Assembly (NCBI GenBank): GCA_965365655.1 | Contig: CBDUCN010000001.1 | Location: 1 to 59,985 of the forward strand | Source of the DNA: an uncultured Gammaproteobacteria bacterium | Lineage (GTDB): Bacteria; Pseudomonadota; Gammaproteobacteria; HK1 | Length of the DNA: 59,985 bases | Direction: 5' to 3' | In this document: positions 21,437-58,508 of the stretch, one piece after another | Position numbering within the stretch: the stretch's first letter is position 1 | Layout: the number at the start of each line of letters is the position of its first letter | The notes under the pieces: model-generated | What the model saw: only the letters and a program-made list of their open reading frames with translations | What the model was told of the DNA's origin: nothing | Database searches by the model: none | Position numbers and translations under genes: made by a program

Positions 21437-21527
21437 GGAGAGGTACCGAAGCGGTCATAACGGCACCGACTCGAAATCGGTTGGTCCTTAACTGGGCACG
21501 TGGGTTCGAATCCCACCCTCTCCGCCA
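21437..21527 (+). tRNA. tRNA-Ser (anticodon CGA), CCA encoded
   Basis: Manual fold: acceptor GGAGAGG/CCTCTCC, anticodon stem ACCGA/TCGGT, loop CTCGAAA (CGA at 21472-21474), long variable arm, T-arm GGGTTCGAATCCC, discriminator G plus CCA. Confidence 0.9.
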
Positions 21528-31210: not shown

Positions 31211-32361
31211 GACGCGCCGCCCGCCGCGCCCTCGCCGCCGTTGCCCACGCGCACCCGGTCACCGGGGCGCAGCCGCTCGTTGCCGCGCACCACCACCTGT
31301 TCCCCCGGAGCGAGTCCGGACAGCACCTCGAAGCGGCTGCCCAGCGCCTCGCCCAGGGCCACCGGGCGCACCGTCGCGACGCCGTCCTCGACGACGTACA
31401 CCGACGTCTGCTCGCCGGCGCGGTTGACGCCGTCCTTGTGCACCGTGATCACGTCGCGGGGCTTGCCCAGCGGAATGTGCACGGTGGCGGTCTGCCCGTC
31501 GGCGAGGCGGCCGTCGCTGTTGTCCAGCGCCGCGGTGAAGCGCACCGCGCGGGTGCGCGTCTGGCGGTTCTCTTCCGGGATCACCGCGCGCACCCGGGCC
31601 GCGTGGCGGCTGCCGTCGTCCAGCGCGAGCGTGACCTCGACTCCGGGCTCGAGCCCGGCGAGGCGTTCGTACGGCACGTCCGCCTCCACCTCGAGGTCGG
31701 CGTCGGCCAGCATGCGCACCAGCGCGTCGCCGGTGTTCGCGTACGCGCCTTCCTCGCGCCAGCGCTGCACCACGACGCCCGCGTAGGGCGCGGTGACGCG
31801 CGCGTAGTCGAGCTCGATCGCGGCGAGGTTCACGTCGGCGCGGGCGGTGTCCAGCGCCGCGCGCGCCTCGCTGACCCGCGCCGCCGCGATCACCTCGTTC
31901 TGCGCAGCGTCGTCGTACAGCGCGCGGCTGGTGGCCTGGGTGTCCTTCAGCGCGGCGAGGCGCTCGCGCTCCTGGCGCGCGAGCGCGAGCTGCGCCTCGG
32001 CGGTCGCGATGCGCGCGCGCGCCTCCTGCATGCGGCCCTGCGCCTGTGCCAGGGTCGCCTTCAGCGCACGGTCGTCGAGGTTCGCGATGACGTCGCCGGC
32101 GGCGACGCGGTCGCCCACGCGTACCGAGAAGTGCGCGATGGGGCCGCGGGTGCGCGCGGCGACGTTGCCTTCCTGGCGCGCGACCAGGCGCCCGATGACC
32201 GGCACCGTCTGCGACAGGGGCTCGCGGATCACCGCGTCGACGCGCACCAGGGCCGCGGGCGGCTGCCCCGTCTGCGCGGCCGCGGCCGGCAGCCACGCCA
32301 GTCCCGCGAGCGCGAGGGTGAAGGCGAGTGCGCGGGCGCCGCGCGGCGCCTCACACCTCAT
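31207..32361 (-). CDS. RND efflux periplasmic adaptor (membrane fusion protein, HlyD family)
   Basis: The C-terminal 384 codons of track ORF 31207..33906 start at ATG 32361 (MRCEAPRGARALAFTLALAGLAWLPAAAAQ...). They contain a lipoyl/coiled-coil/beta-barrel pattern (DYARVTAPYAGVV). 4-nt overlaps with both neighbouring genes. Confidence 0.9.
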   Translation of the reverse strand: MRCEAPRGARALAFTLALAGLAWLPAAAAQTGQPPAALVRVDAVIREPLSQTVPVIGRLVARQEGNVAARTRGPIAHFSVRVGDRVAAGDVIANLDDRALKATLAQAQGRMQEARARIATAEAQLALARQERERLAALKDTQATSRALYDDAAQNEVIAAARVSEARAALDTARADVNLAAIELDYARVTAPYAGVVVQRWREEGAYANTGDALVRMLADADLEVEADVPYERLAGLEPGVEVTLALDDGSRHAARVRAVIPEENRQTRTRAVRFTAALDNSDGRLADGQTATVHIPLGKPRDVITVHKDGVNRAGEQTSVYVVEDGVATVRPVALGEALGSRFEVLSGLAPGEQVVVRGNERLRPGDRVRVGNGGEGAAGGAS

Positions 32362-33857
32362 GCGACGATGACCTTGATCTTCCGCGGAGGCTCGGGCTGC
32401 GCGCCGGGCGCGAGATCGTTGAGCACCCGGAACCAGTCGGCGTTGAACGGCCCGTACGGGAGCGTCGTCGCGAGCGTCTCGACCCGGTCGCCCGGCTGCG
32501 CCGCGCGCACCGCGAGGCGCAGCGGCCGGATCGCGGCGGCCTGCGCGGCGTCCAGCGCGCGGAAGCTGTAGGTGGTCTCGCGGAACGGGAGGTTCAGCTC
32601 CGCGGTGCGCTGCTGCGGCGAGATGAACAGGAAACGGTAGGCCGAGCGGCCGTCTCGGTTCAGCGCGAGGAGCCGCACGTCCACCGGGCCGCTCTCGGTG
32701 CGCCCCACGGTGCGCCCCGTCGCGCCGTCGAAGCCGTTCACCCGGATCGGCTCGAGGTCCGCGAGACGCGCGTTCGGCGCCCACTCGCCCTGCAGGTACG
32801 CGGGCATGTTGCCCGCCTGGCGAATCGGCGCGATGTCGAACACGATCGCCGCGCCGCGCGCGTCGCTCGCGACCACCTTCTCCGGCGAGTTCTGCATCCT
32901 GAAGCCTTGCGGTGCCGTGAACTCGAAGCGCAGGCCGGGGTGCTGGAAGGTGCGCCCGCGCACGACGCCCTGCTCGGGATCGTCGCCGAACACCATGCCG
33001 TCGATCAGCGCGAGGTACTCGTCGCGGGCGACGCGCGGATTCGGCGGCCGCGACACCTCGGCCGCGGCCTGCGCCGCCCGCACCCGGTCCATCGTGCGCG
33101 GGTGGGTGGCCATCAGGTTGTACTGGTCCACCGAGCCCTCGGGCAGCCCTTTCGAGCGCGCCTCCACCTGGCTCTGCTCGCGCAGGCTGGCGAGGAAGGT
33201 GGCCATCGCGTCGGGGTCGTAGCCGGCGCGGCTCATGTAGCGCACGCCCAGGGTGTCGCTCTCGAGCTCCTGCTCCCGGGAGTAGCTCTGGATCGCGAGC
33301 GTCGCGATGGTCTGCCCGACCTGCGCGACGCTGTCCGCGGGCAGCCCGAGCAGGCTCGCGCCGATGGCGCTCGCGATCACGCCGATCTGGGCCATCTGCT
33401 GCGCGCCGAGCCGCTCCGCCGTGTGGCGCGCGTTGACGTGGCCCAGCTCGTGCGCGAGCACGCCGGCCATCTCGGCCTCGTTGCTCGCGAGCGCGAGCAG
33501 CCCGCGCGACAGGTACACGTAGCCGCCGGGCAGCGCGAACGCGTTGACGATGGGCGAGTTCAGCAGGGTGAAGCGGTAGTTGAACTGCTGGTACTCGGTG
33601 TAGGCGGCGAGGCGGCGCCCGACCGTGTCCACGTAGCGCTGCAGCTTCGGGTCCCGGTACTCGCCGCCGAAGGCCTCCAGCATCTTCGGATGCTCGCTGG
33701 CCCCGAGACGGGCGTCGTCCTCCGGGGAGAAGCCGCCGGTGAAGCTGGAGCGCCCGGTCGCCGGGTTCGTGCTGACGCAGCCCGCGAGGCCGCACGCGCA
33801 CCCGGCGAGCGTGGCGGCGCCGCCGGCGCGGAGCAGGGAGCGGCGGGAAACGGTCAT
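32358..33857 (-). CDS. M48-family zinc metallopeptidase, exported/lipoprotein
   Basis: HELGHVNARH (HExxH) and signal/lipobox MTVSRRSLLRAGGAATLAGCACGLAGC. Start moved to ATG 33857. The stop overlaps the adaptor-gene ATG (ATGA). Confidence 0.85.
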   Translation of the reverse strand: MTVSRRSLLRAGGAATLAGCACGLAGCVSTNPATGRSSFTGGFSPEDDARLGASEHPKMLEAFGGEYRDPKLQRYVDTVGRRLAAYTEYQQFNYRFTLLNSPIVNAFALPGGYVYLSRGLLALASNEAEMAGVLAHELGHVNARHTAERLGAQQMAQIGVIASAIGASLLGLPADSVAQVGQTIATLAIQSYSREQELESDTLGVRYMSRAGYDPDAMATFLASLREQSQVEARSKGLPEGSVDQYNLMATHPRTMDRVRAAQAAAEVSRPPNPRVARDEYLALIDGMVFGDDPEQGVVRGRTFQHPGLRFEFTAPQGFRMQNSPEKVVASDARGAAIVFDIAPIRQAGNMPAYLQGEWAPNARLADLEPIRVNGFDGATGRTVGRTESGPVDVRLLALNRDGRSAYRFLFISPQQRTAELNLPFRETTYSFRALDAAQAAAIRPLRLAVRAAQPGDRVETLATTLPYGPFNADWFRVLNDLAPGAQPEPPRKIKVIVA

Positions 33858-33936
33858 CGACGCACGCCGTGTGGACTGCGTCGAGTATACCCGTCGCGCG
33901 CGGCACGCCGCCGCGGCGGCGGCGGACAGAGGGCGC

Positions 33937-36900
33937 TCAGGCGGGCTCTCGTGCGAGCGCGATCCGCCACTGCTCGCCGTCCAGCTCGTGCTCGGCGCTG
34001 AAGTCGTCCGCTTCGCCGTCGCCCAGCGTGCGGGTGGCCAGCGTCTCCTCGTGGATGTGGTCCGCGAAGCGCTCGAGCGCACGCGCGACGCCGTCACCGC
34101 CGCTGATGCGCAGCGCGATGCGGTCCGCGACGTCGAGACCCGCGCGCTTGCGCGCCTCCTGCACCGTGCGCACGAGCTCGCGGGCGAGGCCCTCGCACTC
34201 GAGCTCGGGCGTGAGCCGCGTGTCCAGCCCCACCAGGAAGCCGCCTTCCTCGGCGCAGGCGTAGCCCTCGGCGGACTCCGTCTCCACCAGCACGTCCTCC
34301 GGCTCGAAGGTGATCGGCGTCCCGCCGACGTCGAGCTCGAAGCTTCGCCCGGCGGCGACGGCGCCGGCGACGGCGGCGCCGTCGGCGGCGCTCAGCGCTT
34401 CGCGGATCGCCGGGATCAGCTTGCCGTGGCGGCGCCCGATCCGTGGCAGGTTGGGCTTCAGCCGGTAGCTCACGAGTCCGGCATCGCGGGCGATCGGCTC
34501 GACCGCCTTCACGTTGAGCTCCTCCAGGATAGGCGCCTCGTGGCGCGCCACCGCCGCCGCGGCCGCCTCGTCGGGCACGCGCACCAGCGCGCGCGACAGC
34601 GGCTGGCGGGTGCGCAGCGCGCTCGCGTTGCGCGCGGCGCGGCCCAGCGACACCACCCGGCGCACGACCTCGAAGCCGGCGAGAAGCTGCTCGTCGATGC
34701 GCGCGGCGTCGGCCTGCGGCCACGGGCACATGTGCACGCTGACGGGCGCCTGCCGGTCGCGTGCGCGAACGAGGTTCTGGTGCATGCGCTCGGCGATGAA
34801 CGGCATGAAGGGCGCGAGCAGGCGCGCGGTCACGGTCAGGCACTCGTACAGCGTGAGGTAGGCGGCCAGCTTGTCGTCGCCGGCGGCGGCCTTCCAGAAC
34901 CGGCGCCGGTTCAGCCGCACGTACCAGTTCGACAGCGCGTCGACGAAGGCCTCGATGGCGCGCCCGGCGCCCAGCGCGTCGTAGTCGTCGAGGCGTGCGG
35001 TGCACTCGCGCACCGTGTCGTGCAGCAGCGCCAGCACCCAGCGGTCCATCTCCGGGCGTTCGGCCAGCGGCAGATCGCGGTCGAGATCCGGCGCGTCCAG
35101 GCGAGCGTACATCACGAAGAATCCGTAGGTGTTCCACAGCGTGTTCAGGAACGAGCTCGCGACGTCGCGCACGATGTCCACCGAGATGCGCTTCTGCACG
35201 TCGGGTGCGATGCGGGCGACGAAGTACCAGCGCAGCGCGTCCGCGCCGACGCTCTCGAACACGTCGTACGGATCGACGATGTTGCCCTGCGACTTCGACA
35301 TCTTCTTGCCGTCGGCGTCGACGATGTGCGCGAGGCAGATCACGTTGCGGTAGGCGACGCTGTCCGAGACCAGGGTCGCGATCGCGTGCAGGGTGTAGAA
35401 CCAGCCTCGGGTCTGGTCGATGGCCTCCACGATGTAGTCGGCGGGGAAATGCTTCTCGAAGGTGTCGGCGTTCTCGAACGGGTAGTGCCACTGCGCGTAG
35501 GACATCGCGCCGGAGTCGAACCAGCAGTCGATCACCTCCGGCACCCGGCGGTACTCGCGGCCGTTGTCGGGGTGGCGGAAGGTGATCTCGTCGATCGCGG
35601 GCCGGTGCAGGTCCACGTCGCGAAGCGGGCGCCCGCACAGGCCCTCGAGCTGCTCGACGGACCCGATGCACAGGTAGTCGCCCTCGCCGTCGGTCCACAC
35701 CGGCAGCGGCGTGCCCCAGAAGCGCTCGCGCGACAGCGCCCAGTCGATGTTGTTCTCCAGCCAGTTGCCGAAGCGGCCGTCGCGGATGTACTCCGGCACC
35801 CAGTGGATCGTGCGGTTCAGCGCCACCATCCGGTCGCGCAGCTCGCTGGTGCGGATGTACCACGCATGCTTCGCGTAGTAGATGAGCGGGTCGCCGGTGC
35901 GCCAGCCGTGAGGGTAGTTGTGGGTGTACTTCTGCACCCGCCACAGCAGCCCGCTCGCCTTCAGCTCGTCCACGAGCACCGGGTCGGCCTCCTTGAAGAA
36001 GCGCCCGGCCACCGGCGTCACCTCGGGGAGGAACAGACCGTCGAGGCCCACCCCGTGCACGACCGGCAGGCCCGCGGCCTGCCCCAGCGCGAGGTCGTCC
36101 ACGCCGTAGGCCGGGGCGATGTGCACGATGCCGGTGCCGTCCTCGATGGTCACGAAGTCCGCCGCGTGCACGGCCCACGCGGCGTCGCAGTCCACCGCCA
36201 GGTAGTCGAAGGGCCGGCGATAGCGCCGGCCGACCAGCTCGGCGCCCTTCACGGTGCGCAGCACCTCGTGCGGTGCGTCGCCGAGCGCCGCGTCCACCAG
36301 CGCGGCGGCCAGGATCAGCGTCTCGTCGCCGACGCGAACGAAGGCGTAGTCCACGTCGGCGGCCACCGCGAGGGCGAGGTTCGACGGCAGCGTCCACGGG
36401 GTCGTGGTCCAGACGAGGAACGACGCGCCCGATTCGTCGGCGAGCGGGAAGCGCACGTATACCGACGGATCCACGACCTCCTTGTAGCCGAGCGCGACCT
36501 CGTGCGAGGACAGGGTTGCGCCGATGCGCGGGTCGTAGGGCACCACCTTGTAGCCCTGATACATCAGGCCCTTGTCCCAGATCACCTGCAGCAGGTGCCA
36601 CACCGACTCGATGTAGTCGTTGTCCAGCGTGTAGTACGCGTGCTTCATGTCGACCCAGAAGCCCATGCGCTCGGTCATGCGCTCCCAGTCGGAGATGTAG
36701 CGCATCACCGACTCGCGGCAGCGGCGCGTGAACTCGGCGATTCCGACCTCGCGCTCGATGCGCGCCTTGTCGAAGATGCCGAGCTCCTTCTCCACCTCGT
36801 GCTCCACCGGCAGGCCGTGGGTGTCCCAGCCGGCCTTGCGCGGGCAGTGGTAGCCGCGCATCGTCTTGTAGCGGGGGTAGAGATCCTTGAACGTGCGCGC

Positions 36901-37089
36901 CAGCACGTGGTGGATGCCCGGGCGGCCGTTGGCGGTGGGCGGGCCGTCGTTCCAGGTGTACAGGTCGCGTCCGTCGCTCGCCTGCAACGTGCGTGCGAAC
37001 ACGTCCTCGCGCTGCCAGAATTCCAGCACCTCGTGCTCCAGCGCCGGGCCGTCGTAGCGCCCGGTCACCGCCTCGAATTTCGTCGCCAT
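33937..37089 (-). CDS. ileS: Isoleucine--tRNA ligase, type 2 (Thermus/eukaryote-like IleRS2)
   Basis: Starts at ATG 37089 (MATKFEAV...), 1050 aa. HIGH-region PPTANGRPGIHHVLAR and KMSKS (GKKMSKSQGN). The N-terminal ~200 aa are colinear, from memory, with T. thermophilus IleRS (KDLYPRYKTMRGYHCPRKAGWDTHGLPVEHEVEKELG, SSHEVALGYKEVVDPSVYVRFPL). Confidence 0.95.
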   Translation of the reverse strand: MATKFEAVTGRYDGPALEHEVLEFWQREDVFARTLQASDGRDLYTWNDGPPTANGRPGIHHVLARTFKDLYPRYKTMRGYHCPRKAGWDTHGLPVEHEVEKELGIFDKARIEREVGIAEFTRRCRESVMRYISDWERMTERMGFWVDMKHAYYTLDNDYIESVWHLLQVIWDKGLMYQGYKVVPYDPRIGATLSSHEVALGYKEVVDPSVYVRFPLADESGASFLVWTTTPWTLPSNLALAVAADVDYAFVRVGDETLILAAALVDAALGDAPHEVLRTVKGAELVGRRYRRPFDYLAVDCDAAWAVHAADFVTIEDGTGIVHIAPAYGVDDLALGQAAGLPVVHGVGLDGLFLPEVTPVAGRFFKEADPVLVDELKASGLLWRVQKYTHNYPHGWRTGDPLIYYAKHAWYIRTSELRDRMVALNRTIHWVPEYIRDGRFGNWLENNIDWALSRERFWGTPLPVWTDGEGDYLCIGSVEQLEGLCGRPLRDVDLHRPAIDEITFRHPDNGREYRRVPEVIDCWFDSGAMSYAQWHYPFENADTFEKHFPADYIVEAIDQTRGWFYTLHAIATLVSDSVAYRNVICLAHIVDADGKKMSKSQGNIVDPYDVFESVGADALRWYFVARIAPDVQKRISVDIVRDVASSFLNTLWNTYGFFVMYARLDAPDLDRDLPLAERPEMDRWVLALLHDTVRECTARLDDYDALGAGRAIEAFVDALSNWYVRLNRRRFWKAAAGDDKLAAYLTLYECLTVTARLLAPFMPFIAERMHQNLVRARDRQAPVSVHMCPWPQADAARIDEQLLAGFEVVRRVVSLGRAARNASALRTRQPLSRALVRVPDEAAAAAVARHEAPILEELNVKAVEPIARDAGLVSYRLKPNLPRIGRRHGKLIPAIREALSAADGAAVAGAVAAGRSFELDVGGTPITFEPEDVLVETESAEGYACAEEGGFLVGLDTRLTPELECEGLARELVRTVQEARKRAGLDVADRIALRISGGDGVARALERFADHIHEETLATRTLGDGEADDFSAEHELDGEQWRIALAREPA

Positions 37090-37110
37090 TGATCGTTCCC
37101 TGGAAGCCGC

Positions 37111-37166
37111 AAATGAAGAACGCCCCGCACGGCGGCGCGCGTCAGCATGCCGTCGTCCGGGGCGTT
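37111..37166 (-). terminator. Leader terminator hairpin of the T-box element
   Basis: AACGCCCCG...CGGGGCGUU is a 9-bp perfect stem, extendable to about 17 bp with two mismatches. It is followed by CUUCAUUU and ends about 20 nt before the ileS ATG. Its 5' arm contains CCCGG, which could alternatively pair with CCGGG of the T-box sequence. Confidence 0.6.
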
Positions 37167-37438
37167 GCCGTTCGGGACCGTGGGCGCCGGGGCGCCCGGG
37201 CCGGGCTCGCGTTACCACCCGGTTTCGCCGCGCCCTCGCGGAGCGCGGCCTCGATGCGTGATCCCTTCGGGGGCACGCGGGTCCGGTGTCGGGGACCAGC
37301 CGGCCGGGCCTACTGGCGCGCGGGCGCGCGTTCGGGCGGCGGCTCGAGGGGGATCTTCTCCGGTGCGCGGCCCGGAGCTTCCACCGTCCTCCGATCGCTG
37401 CCGCCGCGGGATGCCGGGTACTCGGCCCTGTCATCGCC
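37111..37438 (-). promoter_or_regulatory. T-box riboswitch leader (Stem I with K-turn, specifier loop and distal T-loop platform; Stem II region; Stem III; T-box/antiterminator; terminator) with Ile specifier
   Basis: Minus-strand reading: closing helix GGC/GCC with GAUGA//CGA K-turn (37438-37431 and 37346-37341). GAGUA at 37423-37419. AGCGA bulge at 37399-37395. Distal loop GACGGUGGAAG at 37388-37378. AGAAGAUCC with AUC at 37354-37352. Stem III GCCGCGC...GCGCGGC at 37249-37227. AAACCGGGUGGUAACGCG at 37225-37208. Terminator hairpin at 37166-37119. Confidence 0.8.
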
Positions 37439-37450
37439 TCAGGGGCCGGA

Positions 37451-37478
37451 ATTCTACTGGCGGCCGGGCCAATTACAA
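37451..37478 (-). promoter_or_regulatory. Candidate sigma70 promoter for the ileS leader
   Basis: Minus strand TTGTAA (37478-37473) - 16 nt - TAGAAT (37456-37451). The predicted start site falls a few nt upstream of the Stem I K-turn. Confidence 0.4.
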
Positions 37479-37653
37479 CGCCGCGCGTGCCGGCTACACG
37501 TTTGTTTCGTGGATCCGGGCGCGGCGGTGCGGACCGGTTCACCCTTCGTTCAGTCCACGTGCTGTTAGCTTGTATGCATCAGACAACCGATGCGGCGTGC
37601 GACCGCACCCGCACGTGTAACGCGAACATCGCGAACATCTCAGGGAGACTCTC

Positions 37654-38103
37654 GTGAACAAAGCGATCGTAATCCTGCTGGCCGCCGGCGCCGTGGGTGT
37701 GACCGGCTGCCAGGAAGTGCGCAACGAGCACGTGGGCATGGGCGTCGGCGGCGCCCTCGGCGGACTCCTGGGCGCTCAGGTGGGAGGCGGCCGCGGGCAG
37801 CTCGCCGCGACCGCGGCCGGCGCGCTGCTCGGCGCGTACCTCGGCGGCAACGTGGGGCGCAGCATGGACCAGGTCGACCGTCTCAACGCGCAGCGCACAC
37901 TGGAGGGCACGCCGACCGGGCAGAGCACCGCCTGGCAGAACCCCGACAGCGGCAACCGGTACGAGGTCACGCCCACGCGCACCTACCAGGAGGAGGGCCG
38001 GCCGTGTCGCGAGTACACCACAGAGGCGTGGATCGACGGCCGGCGCGAGACCCTCAGAGGAACCGCGTGCCGGGAGCCTGACGGGAGCTGGCGCGCGATC
38101 TGA
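37654..38103 (+). CDS. Outer-membrane lipoprotein with glycine-zipper (17-kDa surface antigen/SlyB-like) N-domain and small C-terminal surface-antigen-like domain
   Basis: GTG start with GGGAGA RBS. Lipobox LLAAGAVGVTGC, glycine zipper GMGVGGALGGLLGAQVGGG...GALLGAYLGG, and C-terminal CREYTTEAWIDGRRETLRGTACREPDGSW. Confidence 0.8.
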   Translation: MNKAIVILLAAGAVGVTGCQEVRNEHVGMGVGGALGGLLGAQVGGGRGQLAATAAGALLGAYLGGNVGRSMDQVDRLNAQRTLEGTPTGQSTAWQNPDSGNRYEVTPTRTYQEEGRPCREYTTEAWIDGRRETLRGTACREPDGSWRAI

Positions 38104-57110: not shown

Positions 57111-57244
57111 TTGACACCGCGCCGCCGGCCTCCTACCTTTACCTGACAGCGCCGATTTGATCCGTCAGCTTGCGGGCGCTTTATAAATACGGCTAAAGCG
57201 AGGCAGAACCTGCCTTGGCTTCCGCTGACGGCGGGTTTTTTTTT
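57111..57244 (+). promoter_or_regulatory. Candidate promoter plus ~95-nt structured RNA ending in a U9 tract, upstream of metZ (leader attenuator, riboswitch-like element or sRNA; class unassigned)
   Basis: TTGACA (57111-57116) - 17 nt - TACCTT (57134-57139). 8-bp outer helix CCGTCAGC (57162-57169) / GCTGACGG (57224-57231) encloses two hairpins: CGCTTTA/TAAAGCG (57177-57200) and AGGCAG-AAC-CTGCCT (57201-57215). T9 runs from 57236 to 57244. Confidence 0.4.
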
Positions 57245-57275
57245 GCCCGCGCGGCGCGCGGGCGGGAGCTGTCAG

Positions 57276-58508
57276 ATGAGTACACGCAGGGTGATGCCGG
57301 CGGACGCCGGCCCGGCGACCCGGGCGGTGCGCGCCGGCCAGGAGCGCACCCACGAGGGGGAGCACAACGACCCCATCTTCACGACCTCGAGCTTCGTGTT
57401 CGACAGCGCGGCGCAGGCCGCGGCGCGCTTCTCGGAGACCGAGCCGGGCAACGTCTACTCACGCTTCACGAATCCCACGGTGCGCGCGTTCGAGCAGCGT
57501 CTCGCGGCGATGGAGGGCGCGCGGCACGGCGTCGCGACGGGCTCCGGCATGGGCGCGATCCTGACCACCTGCCTCGCGCTGCTGCGCGCCGGGGATCACG
57601 TGGTGGCCGCGGACAGCCTGTTCGGCTCGACCCTCGGGCTGTTCCGCAACGTGCTGGGCCGCTTCGGCGTGGAGACCGATTTCGTACCGGTCGCCGACGT
57701 CGACGCGTGGCGGGCCGCGGTCCGCCCGCACACGCGGCTGCTGTTCGTGGAGACACCCACCAACCCGCTGGCCGAGGTCGCGGACATCGCGGCCCTCTCG
57801 GCGCTCGCGCGGGACCACGATGCGCTGCTCGCGGTGGACAACTGCTACTGCACGCCGGCGCTGCAGCGCCCGCTGGAATTCGGCGCGCACGTGGTGATCC
57901 ACTCGGGCACGAAGTATCTGGACGGCCAGGGCCGCTGCGTGGGCGGCGCGGTGATCACCGACGACGACAAGGTGCGCGACGCGGTCTACGGCCTCGTGCG
58001 CACCGGCGGCACCAGCCTGAGCCCGTTCAACGCGTGGGTGTTCCTGAAGGGGCTGGAGACGCTGTCGCTGCGCATGCGCGCGCACTGCGAGGCCGCGTTG
58101 GACCTCGCGCGCTGGCTGGCCGTGCAGCCTCGCGTCACCCGGGTGCACTACCCGGGGCTCGAGCAGCACCCGCAGCACGCGCTGGCGGCGCGCCAGCAGT
58201 CCGGCTTCGGCGGCATCGTGGCCTTCGAGATCGACGGCGGGCGGGAGCAGGCCTTCGCGTTCATCGACGCGACGCAGTGGCTGTCCATCACCGCGAACTT
58301 CGGCGACGCGAAGAGCACGATCACGCACCCGGCGAGCACCACCCACGGCCGGCTGAGCGCCGCGGAGCGCGAGGAGGCCGGGGTGCGGGAGAACCTGATC
58401 CGGGTCTCGGTGGGGCTCGAGGACGTGGACGACATCCGCGCCGAGCTCGCCCGCGGCCTGGAAGCCGCCGCTGCGACCGGACGGCTGCGGCCGGCCGCGA
58501 ACGGATGA
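57276..58508 (+). CDS. metZ: O-succinylhomoserine sulfhydrylase
   Basis: PLP-dependent Cys/Met-metabolism family: TSSFVFDSAAQAAARF, NVYSRFTNPTV, HSGTKYLDGQG (PLP Lys). Start at ATG 57276 with a GGGAG RBS. Confidence 0.9.
   Translation: MSTRRVMPADAGPATRAVRAGQERTHEGEHNDPIFTTSSFVFDSAAQAAARFSETEPGNVYSRFTNPTVRAFEQRLAAMEGARHGVATGSGMGAILTTCLALLRAGDHVVAADSLFGSTLGLFRNVLGRFGVETDFVPVADVDAWRAAVRPHTRLLFVETPTNPLAEVADIAALSALARDHDALLAVDNCYCTPALQRPLEFGAHVVIHSGTKYLDGQGRCVGGAVITDDDKVRDAVYGLVRTGGTSLSPFNAWVFLKGLETLSLRMRAHCEAALDLARWLAVQPRVTRVHYPGLEQHPQHALAARQQSGFGGIVAFEIDGGREQAFAFIDATQWLSITANFGDAKSTITHPASTTHGRLSAAEREEAGVRENLIRVSVGLEDVDDIRAELARGLEAAAATGRLRPAANG

Follow-up and report, generated by a model that had tools for sequence, protein, structure and literature searches.

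A predicted class I T-box leader for tRNA-Ile upstream of type-2 ileS in an uncultured high-GC gammaproteobacterium

What lies upstream of the isoleucyl-tRNA synthetase (IleRS) gene ileS in a GC-rich gammaproteobacterial contig, and how is this gene controlled? In the window, that is the whole stretch of 59,985 nucleotides (nt) analyzed here, ileS appears as an open reading frame (ORF) with an N-terminal extension of 151 codons. A preliminary description of this DNA had proposed that the extension is not coding and holds a T-box riboswitch instead. The ileS leader is very probably a class I (transcription-attenuating) T-box for tRNA-Ile, controlling the type-2 ileS of an uncultured high-GC gammaproteobacterium. 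All coordinates refer to the window, and all elements of the leader are on its minus strand, where they were mapped one by one.

The ORF of 1201 amino acids (aa; 33937-37542) is an over-extended ileS, the first 151 codons of which (37090-37542) run into the leader. GC contents at the three codon positions are 0.74/0.78/0.70 in the extension versus 0.71/0.45/0.96 in ileS proper. Among the matches listed, 119 other IleRS proteins (69–87% identical, full length) align from residue 1–5 of the protein that starts with the ATG at 37089, which is therefore the true start. A coding extension is thus ruled out by codon-position GC and by the start positions of the homologues, as had been proposed. The ATG is preceded by a possible Shine-Dalgarno sequence, AGGGAA, at 37101-37096. 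The gene itself had been described as a type 2 IleRS, in agreement with its full-length homologues and its Pfam matches. Inspection of the ORFs of the leader revealed no ATG-initiated ORF that ends inside it. An attenuator with a leader peptide, as in enterobacterial operons for aminoacyl-tRNA synthetases or amino acids, was rejected because a short leader ORF is missing and the 151-codon reading is non-coding by its statistics.

A comparable case of over-extension is seen in locus L163, where the gene call P0006 (1075 aa) also begins within the leader; like the 1201-aa ORF of the window, it is an annotation artefact. Several IleRS database entries of the clade, P0005/P0006 (1075 aa), P0081 (1085 aa) and P0109 (1112 aa), are 25–60 residues longer than the norm of 1046–1050 aa. 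Absorption of the leader into the ORF may be the common cause.

A promoter, TTGTAA and TAGAAT with a 16-nt spacer, had been noted ahead of the leader and is indeed present. It is the sole promoter-like site within 36900-37700 (800 nt), where 0.1 would be expected, and the pattern TTGTAAT-N-TAGAAT is conserved in L161, L163, L166 and L001. The elements of the locus are as follows.

37478-37110, minus strand: promoter and predicted class I T-box leader, 5' of type-2 ileS
37451-37478, minus strand: sigma-70-type promoter from the promoter scan, TTGTAA (37478-37473), 16-nt spacer, TAGAAT (37456-37451)
37341-37438, minus strand: Stem I, predicted tRNA anticodon- and elbow-binding domain (RF00230, clade model R1, covariation)
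37438-37431 with 37346-37341, minus strand: Stem I base helix and K-turn, GGCGAUGA with CGAGCC (GAUGA/CGAG)
within 37341-37438, minus strand: Stem I lower helix, AGGG/CCCU
37423-37419, minus strand: Stem I S-turn, GAGUA with GAA
37399-37395, minus strand: Stem I AG bulge, AGCGA
37388-37378, minus strand: Stem I distal loop, GACGGUGGAAG (GGUG)
37352-37354, minus strand: specifier codon AUC (Ile), read GAA-G-AUC-C, 3' side of the specifier loop
37303-37340, minus strand: Stem II with S-turn motifs, GCCGCCCGAA (37340-37331), CGCGCG-CC-CGCGCG (37330-37317), CAGUAGGCCCGGC (37315-37303)
37280-37297, minus strand: Stem IIA hairpin, GGUCC-CCGACACC-GGACC, with a conserved CGA loop motif (alignment inspection)
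37256-37278, minus strand: variable extra hairpin, GCGUG...CACGC, between Stem IIA and Stem III
37227-37250, minus strand: Stem III, GGCCGCGC-UCCGCGAG-GGCGCGGC, directly 5' of the T-box sequence
37208-37225, minus strand: T-box sequence, AAACCGGGUGGUAACGCG, the single perfect match in the window
37165-37207, minus strand: 43-nt insertion in the antiterminator apical loop, GCC/GGC flanks, hairpin GGGCGCC-CC-GGCGCCC
37157-37164, minus strand: shared strand CGCCCCGG, either the 3' strands of antiterminator helices A2 (CGC) and A1 (CCCGG) or the 5' base of the terminator
37110-37166, minus strand: terminator hairpin AACGCCCCGGACGACGGC...GCCGCCGUGCGGGGCGUU (37166-37119) and U-rich tail UUCUUCAUUUG (37120-37110)
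33937-37089, minus strand: type-2 ileS (1050 aa), ATG at 37089 (homologue alignment; Pfam tRNA-synt_1, Anticodon_1, DUF5915)

A search with the Rfam T-box model RF00230 had been suggested as a check. At its gathering score of 93 bits, which is an operational annotation cut-off and not a biological feature, no T-box was found in the whole window. With permissive filters, Stem I was matched at 37437-37342 (model positions 7-103) with 30.6 bits and a whole-window E-value of 0.0053, and a local scan yielded a piece with the T-box and antiterminator at 37252-37197 (model positions 161-216; 11.9 bits, E = 4). Thus, the Stem I match is statistically significant but stays below the cut-off, so that the lack of a significant RF00230 match, named earlier as a refuting outcome, applies by half if taken literally. 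Because the window lies so far below this curated value, comparative evidence was needed.

Loci of the same IleRS clade were available from at least 8 GTDB species genomes (L001-L008, 64–71% identity) and as at least about 19 metagenome loci (including L081-L097). The closest relatives were obtained by exact-protein look-ups and have IleRS identities of 87% (L161), 80% (L163/L164), 80% (L165) and 79% (L166); L162 has no upstream DNA. Among the matches listed, the genome and metagenome scans contained no relative closer than 72%. The layout of the window leader is repeated in 23 related loci. With the window this amounts to 24 leaders, a lower bound for the clade. Their RF00230 scores form a continuous series from about 104 down to about 31 bits, falling as GC rises. 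L008, L004, L007 and L090 are matched over the full length above the gathering score (103.8, 99.4, 98.8 and 95.2 bits, respectively). Other leaders of the clade are matched over the full length with 79.7, 71.6, 61.0, 50.6 and 49.8 bits, and in high-GC members only Stem I is matched (L161 40.4, L165 30.7, window 30.6 bits). Judged from this series, the window is the divergent, GC-rich end of a set of homologous T-box leaders. In total 20 of the 24 leaders are under the cut-off; as four are at or above it, some may already be marked in automated annotations or in the full alignment of Rfam.

A covariance model of Stem I, R1, was trained on 19 leaders, with the window and its four closest relatives left out; its calibration is rough. 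R1 matches the window over its full length at 37441-37338 with 81 bits (E ~2.6e-26), and nothing else in the 60 kb is better than E = 1. Covariation of Stem I was scored on the alignment of 24 sequences, the consensus of which comprises base, lower and mid helices and a distal helix that ends in the GGUG loop. Standard pairs are formed in 92.2% of the cells versus 33–51% when the 3' partners are slid by 1–3 columns, and 18 of the 24 pairs show changes on both sides. The covariation score is 0.487 versus 0.07–0.14 for the slid pairings, and none of 500 shuffles reaches the observed value. Conservation of the stems with compensatory changes, which had been named as a check, is therefore found for Stem I and also for Stems II and III.

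All Stem I elements listed in the preliminary description, namely the K-turn, one half of the S-turn, the AGCGA bulge and the distal loop, were recovered within 37438-37341. The K-turn GCGAUGA...CGAGC, the S-turn GAGUA, GAA and the codon AUC, which characterize class I T-boxes, are all located ahead of ileS. Additionally, Stem I of the window carries GAAGAUCC. The AGCGA bulge and the GACGGUGGAAG loop align to AGAGA and GGUGNRA of the Rfam consensus as well as to the clade model. Both motifs are near-invariant in the Stem I alignment of the clade and would form the interdigitated T-loop platform for the tRNA elbow.

The specifier codon had been read as AUC, with the caveat that it is shifted by one nt and that the strict register would read GAU. 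Comparison of the leaders settles this point. AUC is invariant in all 24 and the layout is GAA-N-AUC-(A/C/U), with GAA or a near variant and with G, C, U or A at position N. Because AUC is fixed while the base before it varies, the specifier is Ile (AUC) and not Asp (GAU), which matches the gene downstream, ileS. The nearest outgroup T-boxes above the Rfam threshold read GAA-A/U/C-AUC-A/C, and the extra base between GAA and the codon is, on this comparison, the norm of the lineage. The base following the codon is A in most leaders and C or U in the subclade of the window.

The region between Stem I and the T-box sequence had been described as a Stem II-like region and a Stem III hairpin, and both were recovered by RNAalifold on the 24 leaders. 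Stem II consists of lower and upper helices around an invariant GAA and AGUA (8 of 8 pairs compensatory). All five pairs of Stem III are compensatory. In the whole segment, 13 of the 16 predicted pairs are compensatory; the remaining three are invariant and form a small helix inside the T-box sequence, which is regarded as an artefact. The arms of Stem IIA differ between leaders (GGUCC/GGACC, GCUC/GAGC, GAUCU/AGAUC, GACCC/GGGU) while by inspection its CGA motif is invariant. A formal pair score is not given for Stem IIA because a 1-nt indel in the loop misaligns the MAFFT alignment. Thus, the order Stem II, IIA and III of class I T-boxes is found, II and III by RNAalifold and IIA by inspection. 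Equivalents of the extra hairpin are present in L161, L001, L004 and L002 and absent from L008, L090, L083 and L095, the shortest leaders.

The T-box sequence with its 7-nt bulge UGGUAAC had been reported and is found at 37225-37208. The T-box core has one match in the 60-kb window, where 0.05 would be expected. With one deviation, AAACCGGGUGGUAACGCG agrees with the consensus AANNNGGGUGGNACCGCG, in which UGGN is complementary to the NCCA-3' end of tRNA. This deviation is a single base (UGGUAAC instead of UGGUACC; ACC to AAC) common to the window and L161, and the sequence is otherwise identical to the clade consensus. A73 is an identity feature of bacterial tRNA-Ile and suits UGGU. In L163 (2928-2940) and L164, which have the same sequence and an 80% identical IleRS, the T-box contains UGGC instead of UGGU; it would pair with G73, which is unexpected for tRNA-Ile.

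Most leaders of the clade have a compact antiterminator (GGG-UGGUACC-GCG, a loop of 6–14 nt, CGC-CCCGG). In the high-GC subclade, which comprises the window, L161, L163, L165 and L166, the loop has 39–44 nt. The flanks of this insertion are conserved (GCGAGCC...GGCAACGCCCCGG; GCG-A-GCC ... GGC-AA-CGCCCCGG) and its interior is variable, yet hairpin-forming. The strand CGCCCCGG is invariant in 23 of the 24 leaders and reads UGCCCCGG in L008. In about 20 of the 24 leaders, a stem CGCCCCGG...CCGGGGCG is followed by U5-U9; the inner stems are unrelated in sequence and always complementary. L163 and L166, both of the window subclade, possess textbook terminators with U8-9. The preliminary description had stated that the 5' arm of the terminator can alternatively pair with CCGGG of the T-box. 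The alternative pairing via CGCCCCGG is confirmed in silico, but a compact antiterminator is not, since the 43-nt insertion makes the distal CGCCCCGG the partner.

Folding of the two alternatives, another check proposed earlier, agrees with a switch. The terminator hairpin alone has -35.7 kcal/mol and forms in the minimum free energy (MFE) structure of the full-length leader, which has -69.7 kcal/mol versus -53.8 kcal/mol with the antiterminator enforced. On the nascent RNA, from which the 3' arm of the terminator is missing, the enforced antiterminator (-31.0 kcal/mol) is nearly equal to the MFE (-31.7 kcal/mol). Antiterminator and terminator are mutually exclusive in silico by means of the shared CGCCCCGG, followed by a weak U-tail. 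These computed energies are compatible with a kinetic switch in which the antiterminator is held with the help of tRNA.

In two further leaders, L081 (~1190-1500) and L084 (~1200-1500), variants with an AGAGA bulge, a GCUG distal loop and an insertion of 31–32 nt in the antiterminator loop are observed. A U-run after the hairpin is missing in L081, L084 and L165. These three leaders may act via translation or Rho rather than by intrinsic termination.

The following mechanism is proposed for the window. RNA polymerase would start near 37445, about 7 nt after TAGAAT. The nascent Stem I would capture tRNA-Ile(GAU), the anticodon pairing with the AUC specifier (37354-37352) and the elbow stacking on the platform of AGCGA bulge and GGUG loop. 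The free ACCA-3' end of an uncharged tRNA would pair with UGGU (37217-37214) and stabilize the antiterminator, in which CCGGG and GCG of the T-box are predicted to pair with the distal CGCCCCGG (37164-37157), with the 43-nt inserted hairpin in the loop. RNA polymerase would then read through into ileS. With charged tRNA the antiterminator would not be stabilized, the terminator hairpin (37166-37119) would form with CGCCCCGG at its base, and RNA synthesis would stop at the UUCUUCAUUU tail. We infer tRNA binding, sensing of the charging status and termination efficiency for the window leader.

Several observations weigh against this interpretation. The score of the window is far under the RF00230 gathering score, and the piece with the antiterminator has only 11.9 bits (E = 4). 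The bulge is UGGUAAC and not UGGUACC, and neither the window nor any locus of the clade contains a tRNA-Ile gene with which A73 and the anticodon could be compared. The base after the specifier is C and not the usual purine; this is tolerated, as it is also found in outgroup T-boxes above the Rfam threshold. The U-tail is interrupted (UUCUUCAUUU), and a simple terminator scan did not call the terminator of the window, owing to its bulged stem and the interruption of the U-run. A second copy of GCGCCCCGG in the insertion (37176-37168) could form a decoy antiterminator that is compatible with the terminator (-64.2 kcal/mol). This copy is not conserved in L161 and is probably incidental to the inner hairpin of the insertion. 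The helices of the antiterminator are invariant and therefore provide no evidence from covariation. Furthermore, the MFE of the whole leader is no better than that of shuffled sequences (z = -0.63), a value that is uninformative because of the GC content of 73%.

Some of these deviations could indicate a decaying relic, a T-box descendant that no longer senses tRNA and serves as a constitutive partial attenuator or as a mere structured 5' untranslated region. The change from ACC to AAC in the acceptor-binding bulge, the pyrimidine after the codon and the 43-nt insertion cluster in the subclade of the window, which also has the lowest Rfam scores, a weak U-tail and the possible decoy; in L003 and L092 the element is lost outright. 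On the other hand, the K-turn, the S-turn, AUC, AGCGA, GGUG, UGGU and CGCCCCGG are kept across five members of the subclade, the IleRS proteins of which are 79–87% identical to that of the window. Compensatory changes maintain the pairing of Stems I, II and III, subclade members included, the promoter is conserved, and the insertion retains conserved flanks and the potential to form a hairpin. The textbook U8-9 terminators of L163 and L166 likewise argue against decay within the subclade, and a relic is unlikely. A functional T-box with another output, such as sequestration of the Shine-Dalgarno sequence to control translation initiation or Rho-dependent termination, could account for the interrupted U-tail of the window and for the absence of a U-run in L165, L081 and L084. 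Riboswitches of Proteobacteria tend to regulate translation, and the ileS T-box of the actinobacterium Mycobacterium tuberculosis is translational (PMC10907184). In the window, however, the terminator hairpin ends ~17 nt ahead of the putative AGGGAA and does not contain it, and in most leaders of the clade canonical terminators with stem and U-run occupy the homologous position. Stem I is of full length, with AG bulge and distal loop, whereas a truncated Stem I is the mark by which TBDB recognizes class II translational T-boxes (PMC7778990). Since the putative Shine-Dalgarno sequence at 37101-37096 lies downstream of the hairpin at 37166-37119 and is not covered by it, the window is not assigned to class II, and another output is considered quite improbable.

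A different kind of objection is that the leader might not be gammaproteobacterial, owing to a mis-binned or chimeric contig or to an ileS region from a T-box-bearing phylum, or that the resemblance might be due to chance or to coding sequence. The closest relatives are metagenome-assembled and the IleRS type is Deinococcus-like, as would be expected for mis-binning. Yet GC is uniform over the 60 kb (0.69–0.78) and genes of the gammaproteobacterial type flank ileS on both sides. The ileS neighbourhood recurs on four independent contigs and the named relatives of LeuB are gammaproteobacterial. The same IleRS is found in at least 8 species genomes of GTDB that bear the names Gammaproteobacteria, Woeseiaceae, Chromatiales or Acidiferrobacteraceae. 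The R1 match, the codon statistics and the single match of the T-box core rule out chance and coding. These explanations are therefore given almost no weight, and a class I T-box that senses tRNA-Ile remains the preferred interpretation.

The host is, by its genes and their relatives, an uncultured high-GC gammaproteobacterium. An RND efflux system is located on one side of ileS. On the other side are a glycine-zipper lipoprotein, dapD, queG, leuB, asd, a FimV/HubP protein, truA, trpB, folC and metZ. The order leuB-asd-fimV-truA-...-folC is of the Pseudomonas/Xanthomonas type. Named relatives of LeuB (73–80% identical) are gammaproteobacterial metagenome-assembled genomes (MAGs), Ectothiorhodospiraceae, Alkalilimnicola ehrlichii and Thiocapsa imhoffii. 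Where named, the relatives of the IleRS among the matches listed are MAGs of Gammaproteobacteria, Chromatiales, Thiotrichales and Ectothiorhodospiraceae. The beta/gamma-proteobacterial synteny claimed earlier is thus narrowed to gamma by the gene order (leuB-asd-fimV-truA-trpB-folC) and by the relatives of LeuB and IleRS. The neighbourhood found again on the four contigs is queG-dapD-HU-lipoprotein-ileS-M48-RND; for the gene at 32361-33900 of the window no Pfam or NCBIfam match was obtained, and its label as M48 peptidase is taken from Pfam matches of the relatives only.

Two further RNA elements of the window were noted. The only tRNA gene is tRNA-Ser(CGA) at 21437-21527 on the plus strand, overlapped by a weak, sub-threshold match to an sX4 sRNA-like element (27.9 bits). 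A match to SAM-II (SAM_alpha, RF00521) at 57139-57213 on the plus strand scores 37.8 bits, slightly over the gathering score of 36. The gene metZ (O-succinylhomoserine sulfhydrylase, 57243-58508) follows 30 nt downstream, and the match is plausibly a second riboswitch of the window.

The loci L001-L008 are named, among the matches listed, Woeseiaceae (three loci), Chromatiales, Acidiferrobacteraceae and Gammaproteobacteria. The origin of the leader was considered on a neighbor-joining tree of 160 IleRS sequences, a quick distance tree with unlabelled outgroup taxa. In this tree the gammaproteobacterial sequences form a monophyletic clade with a long stem, sister to Deinococcus caeni (~50% identity). 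T-box marks on the tree were set by regular expression and under-call the outgroups (L010, L099, L101, L103 and L110 are Rfam-positive), and only the marks within the gammaproteobacterial clade were used. Both deep branches of this clade bear the T-box. It is absent from the ileS leaders of L003 (Acidiferrobacteraceae) and L092, and the nesting of both among T-box-bearing members implies secondary loss. In L092, ileS (1501 onward) directly follows ribF (201-1451; Pfam FAD_syn and Flavokinase); the linkage ribF-ileS is classic for Proteobacteria. The nearest outgroup ileS loci from metagenomes (L098-L121, IleRS 49–51% identical) have T-boxes in 15 of 20 cases, with 93–110 bits and the GAA-N-AUC layout, and could point to the donor lineage. 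Co-transfer of enzyme and riboswitch, which had been suggested before, is plausible in view of the IleRS sister to Deinococcus and of the 15 outgroup T-boxes. The simplest course would be that ileS and its T-box were acquired together once by the ancestor of the gammaproteobacterial clade (Woeseiaceae and relatives), followed by vertical inheritance and occasional loss. Downstream of ileS, matches to the SAH riboswitch (RF01057) were observed in L003 (5732-5814, 48.4 bits) and L084 (6071-6132, 41.5 bits).

We tentatively advance a wider reading, which at present is possible rather than probable: control of ileS by a T-box would go back to the ancestor of a major environmental lineage of Gammaproteobacteria (Woeseiaceae and allied uncultured groups), would extend across this clade and would be the first T-box system in this class. 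The high-GC subclade would then represent a functional variant that senses the charging of tRNA with an altered discriminator domain (antiterminator hairpin of ~40 nt, UGGUAAC and a pyrimidine after the specifier). If this is true, T-boxes of Gram-negative phyla are systematically under-counted, as 20 of 24 members fall below the Rfam cut-off. T-boxes count as a Gram-positive hallmark and are pursued as antibiotic targets specific to Gram-positive bacteria; an ileS T-box in Gammaproteobacteria extends the known host range as a clade-wide trait. Its conservation across Woeseiaceae-related Gammaproteobacteria would provide a clean case of a synthetase gene that travelled with its riboswitch and would show the mechanism working beside proteobacterial transcription machinery. 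A practical consequence is a blind spot, since GC-rich T-boxes are largely unannotated at the Rfam cut-off, which four of the 24 leaders reach. With the inserted hairpin, nature provides a variant in which the tolerance of the discriminator domain to insertions can be studied.

Published surveys located T-boxes in Firmicutes, Actinobacteria, Chloroflexi and Deinococcus-Thermus, and in Proteobacteria only in Geobacter and Pelobacter (PMC3766115, PMC2494555, PMC2916919). Sun et al. 2013 analyzed 11 proteobacterial groups (PMC3766115). Of the 125 proteobacterial genomes examined by Wels et al. 2008, 2 had T-boxes, ahead of leuA of Geobacter and Pelobacter (PMC2494555). Proteobacteria are not mentioned in the TBDB paper or its supplements (PMC7778990). 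A full-text literature search (Gammaproteobacteria, Woeseia, Steroidobacter, ileS with Proteobacteria) retrieved no description of a gammaproteobacterial T-box. The earlier statement that none is described in beta- or gammaproteobacteria is consistent with the three surveys. Like the T-boxes of Geobacter and Pelobacter (PMC2494555, PMC3766115), the one in the window resides in a host of the Proteobacteria sensu lato and was presumably acquired horizontally. Those are deltaproteobacterial, precede leuA, are specific for Leu and are confined to these species in the surveys, whereas the leader described here is gammaproteobacterial, precedes ileS, is predicted to be specific for Ile and occurs clade-wide (at least 24 loci).

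With regard to the regulated gene, the closest known systems are the ileS T-boxes of Deinococcus and Dehalococcoides (PMC2494555); Wels et al. related the T-box of Deinococcus radiodurans to the Ile-tRNA ligase (PMC2494555). At the ileS locus of Deinococcus caeni (L009), no T-box was found at the Rfam threshold. The outgroup ileS T-boxes L098-L121 share with the window the type-2 IleRS family and the layout GAA-N-AUC-(A/C). In contrast to Deinococcus and these outgroups, the IleRS of which is only ~50% identical, the clade of the window has its own conserved CGCCCCGG base of the terminator. Like the leader of the window, the class II T-box of M. tuberculosis is specific for Ile and controls ileS in a high-GC host, but it employs a sequestrator helix and acts on translation (PMC10907184), while the window has a full Stem I and a terminator-type hairpin. 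A lineage-specific extra stem in the antiterminator/terminator domain is also known as stem Sa of the staphylococcal glyS T-box (PMC9177973). That stem belongs to a Gly-specific element of another host and is unrelated to the insertion in the window, the position and role of which are predicted.

The window most closely resembles the class I leaders (RF00230; Bacillus subtilis tyrS and glyQS, Oceanobacillus glyQ), with which it shares the order of elements, a T-box with UGGN bulge, competing antiterminator and terminator and an aminoacyl-tRNA synthetase gene as the regulated gene. It differs from them by its gammaproteobacterial host, its GC content of 73% and its RF00230 score (30.6 bits versus the cut-off of 93), as well as by the 43-nt hairpin in the antiterminator loop, UGGUAAC, the pyrimidine after the codon, the extra base between GAA and the codon, and the interrupted U-tail. 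At the level of sequence, homology and every structural feature examined place the leader of the window in the T-box family.

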